Source: a phage. From it: DNA of 64,000 nt. The stretch is taken from NCBI GenBank assembly GCA_018093385.1, contig GCA_018093385.1_4808.1; one strand, 5' to 3'. The notes beneath the pieces were generated by a model. The model did no database searches and was not told the origin of the DNA. It saw only the letters and a list, made by a program, of their open reading frames with translations. Below, piece after piece: positions 11,400 through 64,000 of this stretch. Both the position numbers and the translations under genes were made by a program. Numbering within the stretch: the stretch's first letter is position 1; every line of letters begins with the position of its first letter.

Positions 11400-11700
11400 A
11401 GTTTTATACGTATAATGACGTATCATCCGTATCAAGTAAGTTGTTGTTTTCAAAAGAATCTTACGGATGATACGGATGATACGCATTGCCGCCGTACTAT
11501 ATAGGAATTCAAATAAATTAATTTAAAATTATATATCTAATTTAATTTTATTTTTTTATAAACTCTTATATATGAAAAGTATCCGTATCATCCGTATCAT
11601 CCGTAGCACACCAGTGATAGCGCGGCTTATACACCGATACGGATAAAAATACGCCTCATTTTATCCGTATCATCCGTATCACACTAATAAAGGCGCGGCT
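11400..11700. repeat. iteron cluster flanking an AT-rich core
   Basis: 9-bp unit TACGGATGA / TCATCCGTA in 2-3 tandem copies at about 11421-11436, 11461-11482, 11581-11608, 11634-11643, 11662-11683 in both orientations around ~75 bp of nearly pure A/T (11500-11576); palindrome TATACGTATA at 11406-11415. Confidence 0.6.
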
Positions 11701-36410: not shown

Positions 36411-36440
36411 ATAAATAAAAGGCCGCCAATCGGCAGCCTT
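36411..36440 (-). terminator. rho-independent terminator
   Basis: Minus-strand hairpin GGCUGCC-GAUU-GGCGGCC followed by U-run. Confidence 0.5.
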
Positions 36441-43651: not shown

Positions 43652-43678
43652 AAAAAGGCCGCCCATTAGGACGGCCAC
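43652..43678 (-). terminator. candidate rho-independent terminator
   Basis: Imperfect hairpin GGCCGUCC-UAAU-GGGCGGCC followed by U-run on minus strand. Confidence 0.4.
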
Positions 43679-53349: not shown

Positions 53350-53398
53350 TAGTTCACCAGTTATATTGCTTTAAATTGAGTTTTACTATATTAATATA

Positions 53399-53425
53399 CA
53401 ACGCCAGATTTCTGGCGTTTATTTA
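53399..53425 (+). terminator. rho-independent terminator
   Basis: AACGCCAGA-TTTC-TGGCGTT hairpin followed by TATTTA. Confidence 0.5.
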
Positions 53426-53485
53426 CCGCACCCTGAAAGGATATATCCATGCAACAATATAACAAAGCCGTATCAGGAGGATTAA

Positions 53486-57965: not shown

Positions 57966-58294
57966 TGACCCGTGATCAGATACTCGCCGCGCATGAGCGT
58001 GGATTAATAAAAGAAGTGTGGAAGAAGGCCAATGCTTTTGCTGATTCTTATTACTTCTTAAAGAAGTGCATAAAAGAAAATGCAAGAATGGGCAACACAG
58101 TATTGACTTTTAATCTTCTGTCTTATGGCGAAAAGCTTAATGCAATATATGCTTGTCGACTAGCCAGCATGAAGTTCGATAGAGGAAATTACGGAGAGTT
58201 GACCATCTATCGATTCTCTCACCGGACGGGTGATACAAAGATAACAAGGACGCGTGACCAGATAGAGATTGACCTACTCCACTATGTAAAATGA
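57962..58294 (+). CDS. hypothetical protein
   Basis: ORF in track. Confidence 0.45.
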   Translation: MMTRDQILAAHERGLIKEVWKKANAFADSYYFLKKCIKENARMGNTVLTFNLLSYGEKLNAIYACRLASMKFDRGNYGELTIYRFSHRTGDTKITRTRDQIEIDLLHYVK

Positions 58295-58300
58295 ATATCA

Positions 58301-58333
58301 AAAAGGTGAGCTAAATGCTTGCCTTTTCTTTTA
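58301..58333 (+). terminator. rho-independent terminator (copy 1 of repeated cassette)
   Basis: AAGGUGAGC-UAAAU-GCUUGCCUU hairpin (two G-U pairs) plus U-run. Confidence 0.5.
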
Positions 58334-58379
58334 TCAATACTTATACTCTTTTCATCAAGACTAACAAGTGAGGTGAATT

Positions 58380-58697
58380 ATGATTTACTTAGGAATGGAC
58401 GAGGGTGCTTACAAAGACCTTTCAAGGGTGCCAAACGTTAAGTTGGACACAGCTGTACACATCAAGCCTTGGCCAATCGCCCACCCAGACGTTGTTGTCC
58501 CAGTCGCTCCTGGCACGCGTTACGTGGCCATTGATGACGACGGAGTCATTCACTGTTATTCGGAAAAACCAAAGTATATAGAGCAATATCACGGTTGGTT
58601 TTTGGACGAGCGTGCAATGGCGCGTTACTGCGGCGAAGTCGGTCTGGAAGGCTGGAGCTTCGAGGCTAGTGAATCGTGTGTCGAGGTGCAATTATGA
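58380..58697 (+). CDS. hypothetical protein (paralog of 62176-62667 N-terminal region)
   Basis: VAIDDDGVIHCYSEKPKYIEQYHGWFLDE vs VARDSNGSIWVYEEKPAWEERRGQWLYE. Confidence 0.45.
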   Translation: MIYLGMDEGAYKDLSRVPNVKLDTAVHIKPWPIAHPDVVVPVAPGTRYVAIDDDGVIHCYSEKPKYIEQYHGWFLDERAMARYCGEVGLEGWSFEASESCVEVQL

Positions 58698-58912
58698 ACG
58701 CCGCGCTGGGTAAGTTGCCATTCAATAAGCGTAATGAGTTGCGCATGGTATCGCGCTTTCAACAAACGCATTTATCACTAATCAAGATTGCAAACAAGGC
58801 ATACTCTCTAAATTGTCCTGAAGAAGAATGGAAAGAATTGAATGAGCGTCGTAAACAATTACAACATGCTGCATTCAAGCTGCAGCAATATGCTATGGAG
58901 TATGCAAAATGA
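58694..58912 (+). CDS. hypothetical protein
   Basis: ATG 58694 inside longer track ORF. Confidence 0.4.
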   Translation: MNAALGKLPFNKRNELRMVSRFQQTHLSLIKIANKAYSLNCPEEEWKELNERRKQLQHAAFKLQQYAMEYAK

Positions 58913-59193
58913 AGATGCAAAGATGTCCCCATTGCTTGTCCACGATGCGGCTTACTGCTGAAGAATATTTACATCACGTTAACGTTTGTGATGCTAATCC
59001 TGAAAACTCGACACGTTACTATTATCATTATCATGCGGAAGCAGAAGACGGCTCAGGCGCAACAGGCATCGTCACTACGAAAGAAATGGTGATCACAAAA
59101 AAGGCGTATGAAAGCCTGCTGGATACAATCAAGGAAGTGTCTGGCAAAGAAATAGTCTGCATTAAATCTTTATCTTTCTTGCACGAGGTGTGA
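58909..59193 (+). CDS. small Cys/His zinc-finger-like protein (paralog A1)
   Basis: MKMQRCPHCLSTMRL...HHVNVCDANPENS. Confidence 0.45.
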   Translation: MKMQRCPHCLSTMRLTAEEYLHHVNVCDANPENSTRYYYHYHAEAEDGSGATGIVTTKEMVITKKAYESLLDTIKEVSGKEIVCIKSLSFLHEV

Positions 59194-59194
59194 A

Positions 59195-59578
59195 ATGAGA
59201 ATGAAGCGTTGCCCTTACTGCCACGATGTGATGCACCTTCCACACGAAGAGTTTGTGCAGCACATGACTAACTGTGATAAGAATCCTAATAGCGAAAGCC
59301 AACTTGAAGAAAGAATGTTCTTGGTGTCATTCAAAGCTTCTGCTTATGAAGTGCAACGTTCTTACGGCGCACCAAGTACGATTTACTGTCCAACAACATT
59401 GAGAAGCGACATCGACTCAATTCAGCTTGCGGCTTGGATTAACGTTAAGGAAGGAATCACGCCGCACTTTATTGCGCGCATCCAATCTCAGATTCTACAA
59501 ATCAAGCGCGAATACAACCGTGACATCACTGAAGTGAAGGTGTTGTCTATCACACCGATGAATAAGGAGTTGCCGTGA
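59195..59578 (+). CDS. small Cys/His zinc-finger-like protein (paralog A2)
   Basis: MRMKRCPYCHDVMHL...QHMTNCDKNPNSES, tandem to A1. Confidence 0.45.
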   Translation: MRMKRCPYCHDVMHLPHEEFVQHMTNCDKNPNSESQLEERMFLVSFKASAYEVQRSYGAPSTIYCPTTLRSDIDSIQLAAWINVKEGITPHFIARIQSQILQIKREYNRDITEVKVLSITPMNKELP

Positions 59579-59835
59579 ACAAGGGTCCGATGACTAAGTT
59601 AGCCGTTGCCGCGCGGAAGCTTCGACAAGCCGTTAATGGGTCGCGGCCCGTGGTGTTAACACTCGACGACGCAAAGGCACTGGTAGAGCTACTCGACGAG
59701 CACAACCGACGCAAGAATCTGGAGAACACATTACGCTGGCGCGTTACTCCGAAAGGGCGGGAGAGCGAAAAGAAAGCTTACTTGCGGCGCAAACTAAGGT
59801 CGGTCGGCCTTCACGAAGAGGCGAAGAATATTTAA
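59575..59835 (+). CDS. hypothetical basic protein
   Basis: ORF in track, probable GTG start. Confidence 0.4.
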   Translation: MNKGPMTKLAVAARKLRQAVNGSRPVVLTLDDAKALVELLDEHNRRKNLENTLRWRVTPKGRESEKKAYLRRKLRSVGLHEEAKNI

Positions 59836-59839
59836 TTCA

Positions 59840-59873
59840 AAAAGGTGAGCTAAATGCTTGCCTTTTTATTTGC
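59840..59873 (+). terminator. rho-independent terminator (copy 2 of repeated cassette)
   Basis: 30-bp identity with 58301-58330 including hairpin and U-run. Confidence 0.5.
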
Positions 59874-59907
59874 CTGCATTATACTTAGTTCATCAAGCAA
59901 AGGAGAA

Positions 59908-60216
59908 ATGATTATGAGTTACGACGAAAGGTTTGGCAGAAGCGGATTATTTCATGACGCTGTACACAAAGACAGCAAAGATGTTGTCTGCGCATTCAAG
60001 GTTGATTCTTACGGTACGCTGAAACCTTTTAAGGTCGGCGAAACATACAAGCTGTTTCACGGCTGGTTGACGCGTCGCAACAACTTGCCTGACATGGAAG
60101 TCTGGTGGATAGAATACAAGGGTCAGGCTCATCGGTGCAAGGTTGTAGAGGTGCGCGGCGTGAACTACTATCAATCTGTTATCAGCGGATTTGTTTTTAA
60201 AGAGGGTGAGCTATGA
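59908..60216 (+). CDS. hypothetical protein (KVGETYKLF family)
   Basis: RBS AAGGAG; shares FKVG-x-TY-x-L motif with 61439-61780; start may be ATG 59914. Confidence 0.45.
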   Translation: MIMSYDERFGRSGLFHDAVHKDSKDVVCAFKVDSYGTLKPFKVGETYKLFHGWLTRRNNLPDMEVWWIEYKGQAHRCKVVEVRGVNYYQSVISGFVFKEGEL

Positions 60217-63538: not shown

Positions 63539-63554
63539 TAGTGATTAATGTTAA

Positions 63555-63580
63555 GAGGGCCGAATGGCCCTTTTGTTTGC
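63555..63580 (+). terminator. rho-independent terminator
   Basis: GGGCC-GAAT-GGCCC hairpin followed by TTTTGTTTG. Confidence 0.65.
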
Positions 63581-63599
63581 CTGTTGTTTGTGAGGCTTT

Positions 63600-63830
63600 A
63601 TTATCGGATAAAGCGATTGATTTGTGTAAATCTATTAGAGGGTCGTGGGCAGTGAGTATTGTGACGTGAATTTTGTGTCTTGAATATGTGTGCGAATCTG
63701 GAAGATTATTGTACTGTGGTGCTGTGGGATTGGAGAGGGAATCACTAGGAATTGGAGCGTGTACCGTGGTGTGTGGTCCTGTAGGCTGCGCCGTCTATGG
63801 GATTGCCGCTTGAAATTAAAAAGGAGATAT
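63600..63830. other. noncoding G+T-rich, C-depleted tract
   Basis: Long stretch dominated by GTG/TGT/TGG words with very few C on plus strand; no ORF. Confidence 0.4.
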
Positions 63831-63859
63831 AGTTAGCTGGCTAACCTTACGCATAGAAT

Positions 63860-63975
63860 TTAAGCGTATAATGACGTAAGATTTGGACCTATCCGTAGTT
63901 CACTCCACACACTTCTATGGTGCGCCGCGACTGGTTTCAGTGGTACATCTTACGGATGATACGGATGATACGCGT
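63860..63975. repeat. second copy of iteron/promoter-like module
   Basis: GCGTATAATGACGTA and 27-bp ATCTTACGGATGATACGGATGATACGC identical to 11458-11484; palindrome GTTAGC-TG-GCTAAC at about 63831-63846. Confidence 0.55.
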
Positions 63976-64000
63976 CGCCGCTATACTTTATACAACTTTG

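Follow-up and report, generated by a model that had tools for sequence, protein, structure and literature searches.

The 64,000-nucleotide (nt) stretch of phage DNA analyzed here (contig GCA_018093385.1_4808.1 of assembly GCA_018093385.1, hereafter the window) carries one 30-nt sequence, TCAAAAAGGTGAGCTAAATGCTTGCCTTTT, in two identical copies, each located between the end of one small gene and the start of the next, which raises the question of what keeps these bases the same. A preliminary description of the locus regarded the copies as a terminator-promoter cassette repeated in the early region and took their exact conservation as the sign of a sequence-specific function, for example an RNA processing site, an antiterminator target or a phage-specific promoter. 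Our analysis indicates that they are probably paralogous terminator-promoter cassettes of the host type (sigma-70), which split a rightward block of small genes (approximately 51-63.5 kb) into successive units, and the label "early region" is plausible for them.

Escherichia virus TH35 matches the region at 99.8% identity over the queried stretch, and approximately 27 other Wifcevirus records, such as WFC, WFH, FEC19, ECML-117, vB_Eco4M-7 and Bas98-101, match it at 84-95%. Wifcevirus comprises virulent Escherichia coli myoviruses with genomes of 66-72 kb and a terminal repeat of approximately 3.7 kb, distantly related to the Pseudomonas phages of the genus Pbunavirus, and the window corresponds to approximately 4.7-68.7 kb of WFC, which is nearly the whole unique genome. 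Matching across the whole window located the exact 30-mer on the plus strand only, at two positions:

58298-58327, plus strand: first copy of the 30-mer, an exact match that is absent from shuffled sequences
59837-59866, plus strand: second copy, also exact; the stop codon of the upstream gene occupies 59833-59835

The identity of the two copies described previously was thus confirmed, with corrected coordinates (58299-58328 and 59828-59857 were off by 1 and 9 nt, respectively). No other match with three or fewer mismatches was found on either strand of the window, and 100 dinucleotide-preserving shuffles returned no match. The search for additional copies in the rest of the genome, as had been proposed, also found only these two: with up to seven mismatches allowed, no further copy appeared in the window, in WFC 1-50000 or in WFC 56468-71064, the latter taking in most of the right terminal-repeat copy, which is the part that the window lacks. 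The repeat stretches to 35 nt at 94% identity, and a wider similarity of approximately 62 nt (82-84%) relates 58298-58359 to 59837-59897. Moreover, all 29 of the 29 Wifcevirus phage records contain the cassette at exactly two places each. Scans of IMG/VR, metagenomes and GTDB detected the cassette in Wifcevirus-like DNA only, and the lack of any match in 5,426 E. coli genomes indicates that it was not copied from a host terminator.

The first half of each cassette has the anatomy of an intrinsic terminator, with the following elements:

58301-58327, plus strand: hairpin of copy 1, with an A-tract (58301-58304), the 5' arm GGTGAGC (58305-58311) and the loop TAAAT (58312-58316)
58317-58327, plus strand: 3' half of the same hairpin, with the 3' arm GCTTGCC (58317-58323) and the T's at 58324-58327
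58324-58332, plus strand: U-tract of copy 1, TTTTCTTTT
59839-59867, plus strand: hairpin of copy 2, with its core at 59844-59862 and its loop at 59851-59855
59863-59871, plus strand: U-tract of copy 2, TTTTTATTT

Each copy of the 30-mer begins 2-4 nt past a stop codon (58292-58294 and 59833-59835) and the hairpin begins 4-7 nt past it. The core stem, GGUGAGC/GCUUGCC, comprises 7 bp (four G-C pairs, one A-U pair and two adjacent G·U pairs) and closes a 5-nt loop, UAAAU, while four to five flanking A-U pairs bring the stem to 11-12 bp; the hairpin is followed by UUUUCUUUU or UUUUUAUUU. The two G·U pairs and the U-run reported in the preliminary description are therefore present, and the stem length of 9 bp given there lies between the 7 bp of the core and the 11-12 bp of the extended stem. 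On the plus strand, the minimum free energies of the 35-mers were -13.7 (copy 1) and -14.7 kcal/mol (copy 2), with z-scores of -3.6 and -4.9, while the minus strand folded more weakly (-9.3 and -9.7 kcal/mol) because the G·U pairs turn into A·C mismatches. This strand-specific fold argues for a signal that is read as coding-strand RNA. In addition, both orthologous hairpins were independently annotated as putative terminators in the GenBank records of WFC and WFH, with a depositors' value of -10.10 kcal/mol. Both copies combine a G+C-rich stem, a loop within the range of 3-8 nt, a U-run and a codirectional position after a gene end, which are the sequence features of intrinsic terminators, and the RNA 3' end of copy 1 is predicted at approximately 58330-58332, considering the usual distance of 7-9 nt past the stem. 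Screening the whole window against Rfam 15 returned no family at the gathering score; the sole sub-threshold hits, to MicX (16-18 bits against a threshold of 75 bits), mirror the shape of a terminator.

The second half of the cassette resembles a promoter, and it begins within the hairpin itself. The consensus scan placed the -35 element, TTGCCT, in the 3' arm of the stem plus the first T of the U-tract, a feature that the preliminary description had missed:

58319-58347, plus strand: sigma-70-type promoter of copy 1, with the -35 element at 58319-58324, a T-rich spacer of 17 nt and the -10 element at 58342-58347
59858-59885, plus strand: sigma-70-type promoter of copy 2, with the -35 element at 59858-59863, a spacer of 16 nt and the -10 element at 59880-59885
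58351-58359, plus strand: TTCATCAAG of copy 1, with the candidate start A at 58354, 7 nt past the -10 element
59889-59897, plus strand: TTCATCAAG of copy 2, with the candidate start A at 59892
58352-58359 and 59890-59897, plus strand: TCATCAAG, 4 nt past TATACT in both copies
58362-58376, plus strand: 5' untranslated region (UTR) and Shine-Dalgarno sequence of copy 1, TAACAAGTGAGGTGA, followed by the ATG (58380-58382) that opens the first module gene between the cassettes
59900-59905, plus strand: Shine-Dalgarno sequence AAGGAG of copy 2, followed by the ATG at 59914-59916

With TATACT as the -10 element, 9 of the 12 consensus positions are matched, which taken alone is a weak fit. The occurrence of TATACT and TCATCAAG ahead of the next ribosome-binding site (RBS), as noted previously, holds for both copies. 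Transcription probably starts at the A of TTCATCAAG, and a C-A step is the usual context of transcription starts. The predicted start would lie approximately 21-24 nt (about 22) past the predicted RNA 3' end. As a genome-wide motif TTCATCAAG was rejected, being common within genes and tied to a -10 element in the two cassettes only.

The same type of promoter recurs elsewhere in the window, which favours a genuine promoter over a chance match. The pattern TTGCCT-N15-18-TATAMT occurs four times against 0.05 expected (80-fold), always in intergenic DNA and codirectional with the following gene. A simple filter for -35/-10 pairs kept 20 sites, 17 of them codirectional with their gene block (with hexamers such as TTGCCT, TTGCTT, TTGACT or TTTACT, 16-18 nt and TATA[AC]T), most lying just upstream of an RBS and several directly after terminators. 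Additionally, the window contains 11 terminator-like hairpins that are intergenic and codirectional, of which seven have a -35/-10 site within 60 nt downstream; in four of these seven the -35 element lies within the hairpin or no more than 5 nt past it (the two cassettes, a minus-strand site at 1036 and a site at 63556). The mapped transcriptome of the distant relative Pbunavirus 14-1 likewise includes 26 promoters of sigma-70-like type, beside 14 terminators (PMC10914365). Beyond 52.2 kb, the cassettes hold the only recognisable internal promoters of the rightward 12-kb block, which consequently divides into units ending at 58.3, 59.8 and 63.6 kb.

The conservation of the cassette was evaluated in 58 copies from GenBank, IMG/VR, metagenomes and Logan/ENA contigs. 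The 85-bp spacer containing copy 1 is 94-100% identical among relatives (at least 96% in 28 of 29), compared to 84-95% for the flanking 2.4 kb, except in two close relatives, and a column-wise profile peaks at 0.96-1.0 in the cassette against 0.53-0.93 in the flanking genes. TATACT is unchanged in all 58 copies and TTCATCAAG is nearly invariant. The stem is altered in two of the 58: in one, a G-C pair becomes G·U, which is also the only change affecting the -35 element (to TTGTCT), and in the other a basal pair is broken. The loop differs in eight copies (A to T or A to G), and the spacer of copy 2 is variable. Between the two paralogues, likewise, the hairpin with its -35 element, the -10 element and the start region are alike, while the spacer has diverged in both sequence and length; such a pattern would be expected as the footprint of a duplicated promoter and not of a site recognised by a protein or an RNase. 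Both copies therefore combine conserved sigma-70 hexamers and a varying spacer with an RBS and ATG downstream. Gene conversion between the copies left no sign: where copy 2 of a genome has a variant loop, its copy 1 does not share the change, which argues for purifying selection acting on the two copies separately and against gene conversion still in progress. A conservation unique to the cassette was also rejected, given that an intergenic stretch of 136 nt at 53350-53485 is 99.3-100% identical in 29 of 29 Wifcevirus records, far above its neighbouring genes.

The cassettes also coincide with sites of gene gain and loss, a second point absent from the preliminary description. They lie within the rightward block of small unknown open reading frames (ORFs) at 51.1-63.5 kb, which opens with a strong divergent promoter region and includes a VapE-like primase/helicase, and they enclose a module of five small unknown ORFs:

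58380-58697, plus strand: first ORF
58694-58912, plus strand: second ORF
58909-59193, plus strand: third ORF
59195-59578, plus strand: fourth ORF
59575-59835, plus strand: fifth ORF

No Pfam match above threshold was obtained for the enclosed genes or for those inserted at the cassettes in relatives, and PHROGs assigned one family of unknown function only. The third and fourth ORFs encode tandem paralogous small proteins with an N-terminal CPxC...H...C pattern (zinc-ribbon-like; 42% identity over 36 amino acids), and the third is missing in many relatives, with the deletion joint at the starts of the paralogous genes.

In WFC, Bas100 and the metagenome contig L026, an ORF of 64 amino acids stands directly 5' of the first hairpin, with a 21-nt direct repeat (AAATGAATATCAAAAAGGTGA) on both sides; judged by coordinates, this ORF also occupies the corresponding position in F13 and SP13, and two unrelated phages, ST20 and Yersinia P400, have homologues. 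The RBS of the inserted ORF is, in WFC and Bas100, the 5'-arm sequence AAAAAGGTGA. Contig L034 has an extra ORF of 84 amino acids just past the RBS of cassette 1, RCIP0319 carries a 1.4-kb insert of three ORFs ending 8 nt before hairpin 2, and at least five alternative first genes follow cassette 2 across the genomes. Furthermore, contig L023 (NZ_JPLE01000312.1; 943 bp, Wifcevirus-like, 79-98% identical to the window and its relatives) contains a single chimeric cassette, which follows cassette 1 through TATACTC and cassette 2 from AGTTCATCAAG and is joined to the gene at 60212; the sequence spanning this arrangement is TATACTCAGTTCATCAAGC. The entire five-gene module is missing from it, and both flanks are 97.8-98.9% identical to those of a metagenome contig with two cassettes (L024). 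The contig belongs to the draft Xanthomonas pisi DSM 18956 assembly, of which it is almost certainly a contaminant. A k-mer misassembly was considered unlikely, since the change from one cassette to the other occurs beyond the exact 30-mer, between identical blocks of 7 and 9 bases. Overall, across 27 relatives and the interval 56.4-61.8 kb, seven of approximately 20 classes of rearrangement joints touch a cassette, while the cassettes represent 2 of 16-17 gene junctions (binomial P of approximately 0.006-0.008).

We propose that polymerase arriving from upstream would transcribe the hairpin and the U-tract just past the stop codon and release its transcript through intrinsic termination. In the DNA, TTGCCT of the 3' stem arm would act as the -35 element of a host sigma-70 promoter, together with the -10 element TATACT, and the next unit, provided with its own RBS, would be transcribed from the A of TTCATCAAG. 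Some 20-odd bases would serve at once as RNA stem, U-tract and -35 element with its spacer, with overlapping duties that can be assigned by position: the A-tract and 5' arm, the loop, the 3' arm as -35 element and the U-tract as the start of the spacer. The two G·U pairs would let the 3' arm spell TTG, and the exact identity of the 30-mer would result because these overlapping duties freeze the bases, in addition to the descent of both copies from one ancestral cassette. Polymerase bound at the promoter may also strengthen termination, as in promoter-coupled terminators. As a secondary role, the cassettes could provide conserved islands in a variable region, and thus joints for homologous or short-homology recombination at which small genes are inserted, replaced or deleted.

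The terminator-promoter cassette of the preliminary description is well supported at the level of sequence by the hairpin and U-run after a stop codon, the strand-specific fold, the terminator annotation in WFC and WFH and the -35/-10 pair kept in 58 copies. The sequence-specific function that it proposed is not, considering that the promoter is of an ordinary sigma-70 type that recurs genome-wide and that overlapping duties and a common origin account for the identity. Exact conservation does not point to a special function either, as 53350-53485 is even more conserved, the loop tolerates substitutions and there is no Rfam match. Anatomy, strand specificity, conservation, promoter recurrence and the clustering of rearrangements are properties of the sequences, from which we infer termination and initiation at the cassettes, their efficiency and their early timing. 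Several observations weigh against this proposal. The core stem is short and contains two G·U pairs, with a depositors' value of -10.1 kcal/mol, so that termination may be partial; the -35 element fits just four of six consensus positions, and a generic promoter scan of the region performed at chance (23 found against 23.2 expected). No compensatory double substitution in the stem was found among the 58 copies; covariation thus neither supports nor contradicts the fold, and the structure rests on strand asymmetry and on variation restricted to the loop. The single-cassette recombinant is known from one contig of 943 bp, which belongs to an unrelated bacterium's draft assembly, with all 29 of the 29 complete phage records keeping both cassettes. 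Moreover, the region is highly variable and most joints occur at ordinary gene junctions, which makes the cassettes preferred and not exclusive sites. Lastly, no Wifcevirus transcriptome or mapping of transcript 5' or 3' ends was found in the literature.

Part of this evidence would fit another explanation, which we consider unlikely, that the copies are terminators only, the match to TTGCCT and TATACT being fortuitous and the conserved downstream bases representing 5' UTR or translation signals on a read-through mRNA. The chance-level promoter scan and the imperfect -35 element agree with it, as does the fact that the annotators of WFC and WFH marked terminators alone, and two minus-strand terminators of the window (at 43676 and 36440) directly precede a start codon without a promoter. 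However, TATACT is invariant in the 58 copies and, despite the diverged spacer, stands 16-17 nt from TTGCCT and at the same offset from TTCATCAAG in both paralogues, the 80-fold enriched pattern always lies ahead of a gene, and a functional terminator would leave the blocks of five and ten genes behind the cassettes with no other recognisable promoter. A role of the hairpin as a sequence-specific RNA target, either for an antiterminator of the lambda N/nut kind or for RNase III/E, controlling read-through or cutting a polycistronic RNA, appears improbable. Two identical copies at operon boundaries with an almost invariant stem would suit such a role, and lambda, which carries two near-identical boxB hairpins, offers a parallel. 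Nevertheless, a hairpin that lies upstream of a promoter and ends in a U-run forms the 3' terminus of the transcript arriving from upstream, which sets it apart from nut sites; the flanks show no CGCTCTT resembling boxA, the loop varies in 8 of the 58 copies, Rfam gave nothing beyond the sub-threshold MicX hits, a stem of 11-12 bp does not reach the length typical of RNase III sites, and the genome has two copies only while other operon ends carry unrelated hairpins.

The clustering of rearrangements at the cassettes, the chimeric single cassette of one relative and the inserted ORFs flanked by a repeated part of the cassette could also suggest a DNA-level recombination site, in which an imperfect inverted repeat, perhaps folded as single-stranded DNA like an integron attC, is used by a dedicated gene-capturing recombinase and the transcription signals are secondary. 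This seems very improbable, given that crossovers are scattered: they occur within the 5' arm, at a distance of 8 nt before the hairpin, past the ATG, and between the -10 element and the start. Such scatter would be expected if short homologies recombine in a general way, but not if a site-specific enzyme acts. Many joints of the region fall at ordinary gene junctions, and no recombinase is annotated in the viewed stretches of WFC, the window proteins not having been screened for recombinases or integrases. Finally, the cassette might encode a short peptide, since the 5' arm AAGGTGAG is Shine-Dalgarno-like and an ATG in the loop opens a frame, of 18 codons in copy 1 and entering the next gene in copy 2. 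In both copies the frame is open to the next gene, some records annotate it (vB_Eco4M-7 gene 08; Bas98_0076), and AAAAAGGTGA acts as an RBS for the inserted ORF of WFC and Bas100. Yet the hairpin pairs the Shine-Dalgarno-like bases, only read-through RNA would contain the frame, and the predicted peptides diverge after four residues; above all, 1-nt indels between AAGGAG and the downstream ATG shift the loop ATG in and out of frame among genomes. These frame-breaking changes show the stretch to be non-coding, and the peptide is the least credible of the explanations considered. The resemblance itself is evident, as the 5' arm and loop, AAGGTGAGCTAAATG (58303-58316; 59842-59855), mimic a Shine-Dalgarno sequence and start codon. 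Several GenBank genes that start in or span the cassette, such as vB_Eco4M-7 gene 08, Bas98_0076 and Bas99_0075 (L010 2299-2661; L008 1885-1977; L017 1892-1984), are probably wrong calls (over-calls).

Besides the two cassettes, at least five other terminator-promoter pairs in the window share sub-motifs only (TATACT, TTGCCT or the 15-mer of the UTR), and the hairpins at other operon ends are unrelated to the 30-mer. Among these elements are:

1036-968, minus strand: related cassette with a different hairpin, GGCGCTGAAAAGCGCC (1036-1021), directly followed by the -35 element TTTACT (1020-1015), a 16-nt spacer and the -10 element TATACT (998-993)
4716-4642, minus strand: terminator followed by a promoter, with the hairpin at 4716-4698 and TTGCCT-16-TATAAT at 4669-4642
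63556-63571, plus strand: AGGGCCGAATGGCCCT, the terminator that closes the third rightward unit and is also annotated as such in WFH
63577-63604, plus strand: TTGCCT-16-TATTAT, 5 nt past the last base of the 63556 hairpin

The exact 15-nt 5' UTR of cassette 1 recurs at 982-968 on the minus strand, within an otherwise different cassette, which is thus a mosaic. The promoter at 63577-63604, in the stretch 63556-63850, faces approximately 250 nt of G/T-rich DNA without a convincing ORF, and the matching stretch of WFC (68197-69049) has no annotated gene; close to the boundary of the terminal repeat, this segment may represent a long leader or else a non-coding RNA. Within the leftward block of replication genes, the minus strand carries two strong hairpin and U-run terminators at 43657-43676 and 36419-36440 (-16.2 and -15.3 kcal/mol), which suggest attenuation and not unit boundaries, because the next start codon adjoins without a promoter. 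The highly conserved stretch at 53350-53485 lies upstream of the VapE-like gene and contains a symmetric hairpin, CGCCAGATTTCTGGCG, with AT-rich flanks; conservation at 63539-63625 is lower. In addition, nine-base tandem iterons (ACGGATGAT) were found in seven good copies against 0.05 expected, on the plus strand at 11463-11486 and 63952-63975 and on the minus strand at 11581-11604 and 11663-11677. They sit in two repeats of approximately 100 nt with 89-90% identity (11403-11700; 63859-63992), beside an extremely AT-rich stretch (11500-11580), and the copy at 63.9 kb lies approximately where the 3.7-kb terminal repeat of WFC starts. From their sequence, these iterons look like binding sites of a regulator (possibly of a late promoter) or part of an origin or packaging region.

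The closest known counterparts of the cassettes are the promoter-early stem-loops (PeSLs) of T4-like myoviruses, in which terminator and promoter form one composite cassette (Arbiol et al. 2010, PMC2839356; Comeau et al. 2014, PMC4122927). In PeSLs, a stem-loop terminator comes first, followed by an early promoter of sigma-70-like type and then by the Shine-Dalgarno sequence and ATG, and the whole fills the intergenic space (PMC4122927). PeSLs recur within a genome, cluster among ORFans of hyperplastic regions and are linked to indels, and neighbouring copies recombine and excise the DNA between them, as documented by mini-circles and by differences between phi1 and RB49 (PMC2839356, PMC4122927). 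The Wifcevirus cassettes share the order of parts from stop codon to ATG and their repetition in one genome, among small unknown ORFs of a variable region and beside indels and replacements. They also share the formation of a chimeric cassette after loss of the intervening DNA, here in one natural case on a short contig (L023 compared to L024). On the other hand, Wifcevirus is not T4-like (Tevenvirinae and relatives), it has two near-identical copies and a handful of looser pairs where PeSLs number in the dozens, its -35 element lies within the stem arm and not downstream of the stem-loop, and its promoter and terminator activities are predicted from the sequence, as any circular intermediates would be hypothetical. 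Nonetheless, the natural variants hint that PeSL-like shuffling at such cassettes extends past the T4-like phages. A bolder interpretation, which we regard as rather unlikely, is that the cassette is an active mobile regulatory system of Wifcevirus, selected also for the capture, swapping and discarding of small accessory genes at insulated slots via circular or other intermediates; in a stronger version, a dedicated factor could recognise the hairpin. If this were true, modular shuffling of the PeSL type would be general in virulent phages well beyond the T4 group.

The overlap of the two halves finds its counterpart in the promoter-coupled terminators of bacterial chromosomes, of which 540 pairs were described in E. 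coli from mapped RNA ends (Fletcher et al., bioRxiv 2026, 10.64898/2026.08.19.745784). They are defined on Term-seq and Cappable-seq data by a termination site within 35 bp upstream of a start on the same strand, and it has been demonstrated that mutations of the stem or T-tract lower both activities and that promoter-bound polymerase aids termination within 35 bp (10.64898/2026.08.19.745784). As in those elements, the Wifcevirus cassette lies between tandem genes, with stem-loop DNA that doubles as the -35 element, a T-tract in the spacer and an A-tract upstream of the stem, and its end-to-start distance, both ends being predicted, would be approximately 21-24 bp, under the limit of 35 bp. 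It differs in being located in a phage, in being duplicated and in its spacing, since the modal distance in bacteria is approximately 10 bp, with the T-tract abutting the -10 element (a geometry that characterizes the modal subclass and does not define promoter-coupled terminators), compared to about 22 bp here, where the T-tract follows the -35 element and nine (copy 1) or eight bases (copy 2) part it from the -10 element. A convergent-gene terminator of the Asteriusvirus vB_EcoM_JNE01 (AAAAAAGGAGAGCTTAATGCTCTCCTTTTCTTTT) has a similar A-tract, a 7-bp stem, a 5-nt A/T loop and the tail TTTTCTTTT, but its stem is fully Watson-Crick (GGAGAGC/GCUCUCC) and no promoter stands behind it; the two 3'-arm positions that are not Watson-Crick in Wifcevirus (G·U) are exactly those that make the TTG of the -35 element.

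Other phage systems are comparable in part. The lambda nutL and nutR sites are also two near-identical short RNA hairpins tied to early operons, but they stand downstream of the promoter, have no U-run, require boxA and load N onto polymerase, whereas the Wifcevirus hairpin stands before the promoter and carries a U-run, with no boxA CGCTCTT in its flanks. Lambdoid morons are likewise added genes with or beside their own transcription signals; those signals are not conserved linkers shared among insertion sites, while the Wifcevirus cassette recurs and supplies homology. The hairpins of the two cassettes were already annotated as terminators, and no mention of their duplication, promoter overlap or position at recombination joints was found in the searchable literature. 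The findings do not overturn current understanding; they contribute to a better annotation of understudied, therapeutically interesting coliphages that depend on the O-antigen, propose that the rightward genes form three transcription units, with defined ends and with two internal promoters of host type, and name safe, transcriptionally insulated sites for the insertion of reporter or payload genes. Altogether, the arrangement is one already known from T4-like phages and from bacteria, and the Wifcevirus cassette is a tidy example of it and not a new kind of element, offering a phage case in which a single stretch of DNA would provide RNA stem, U-tract and -35 element.

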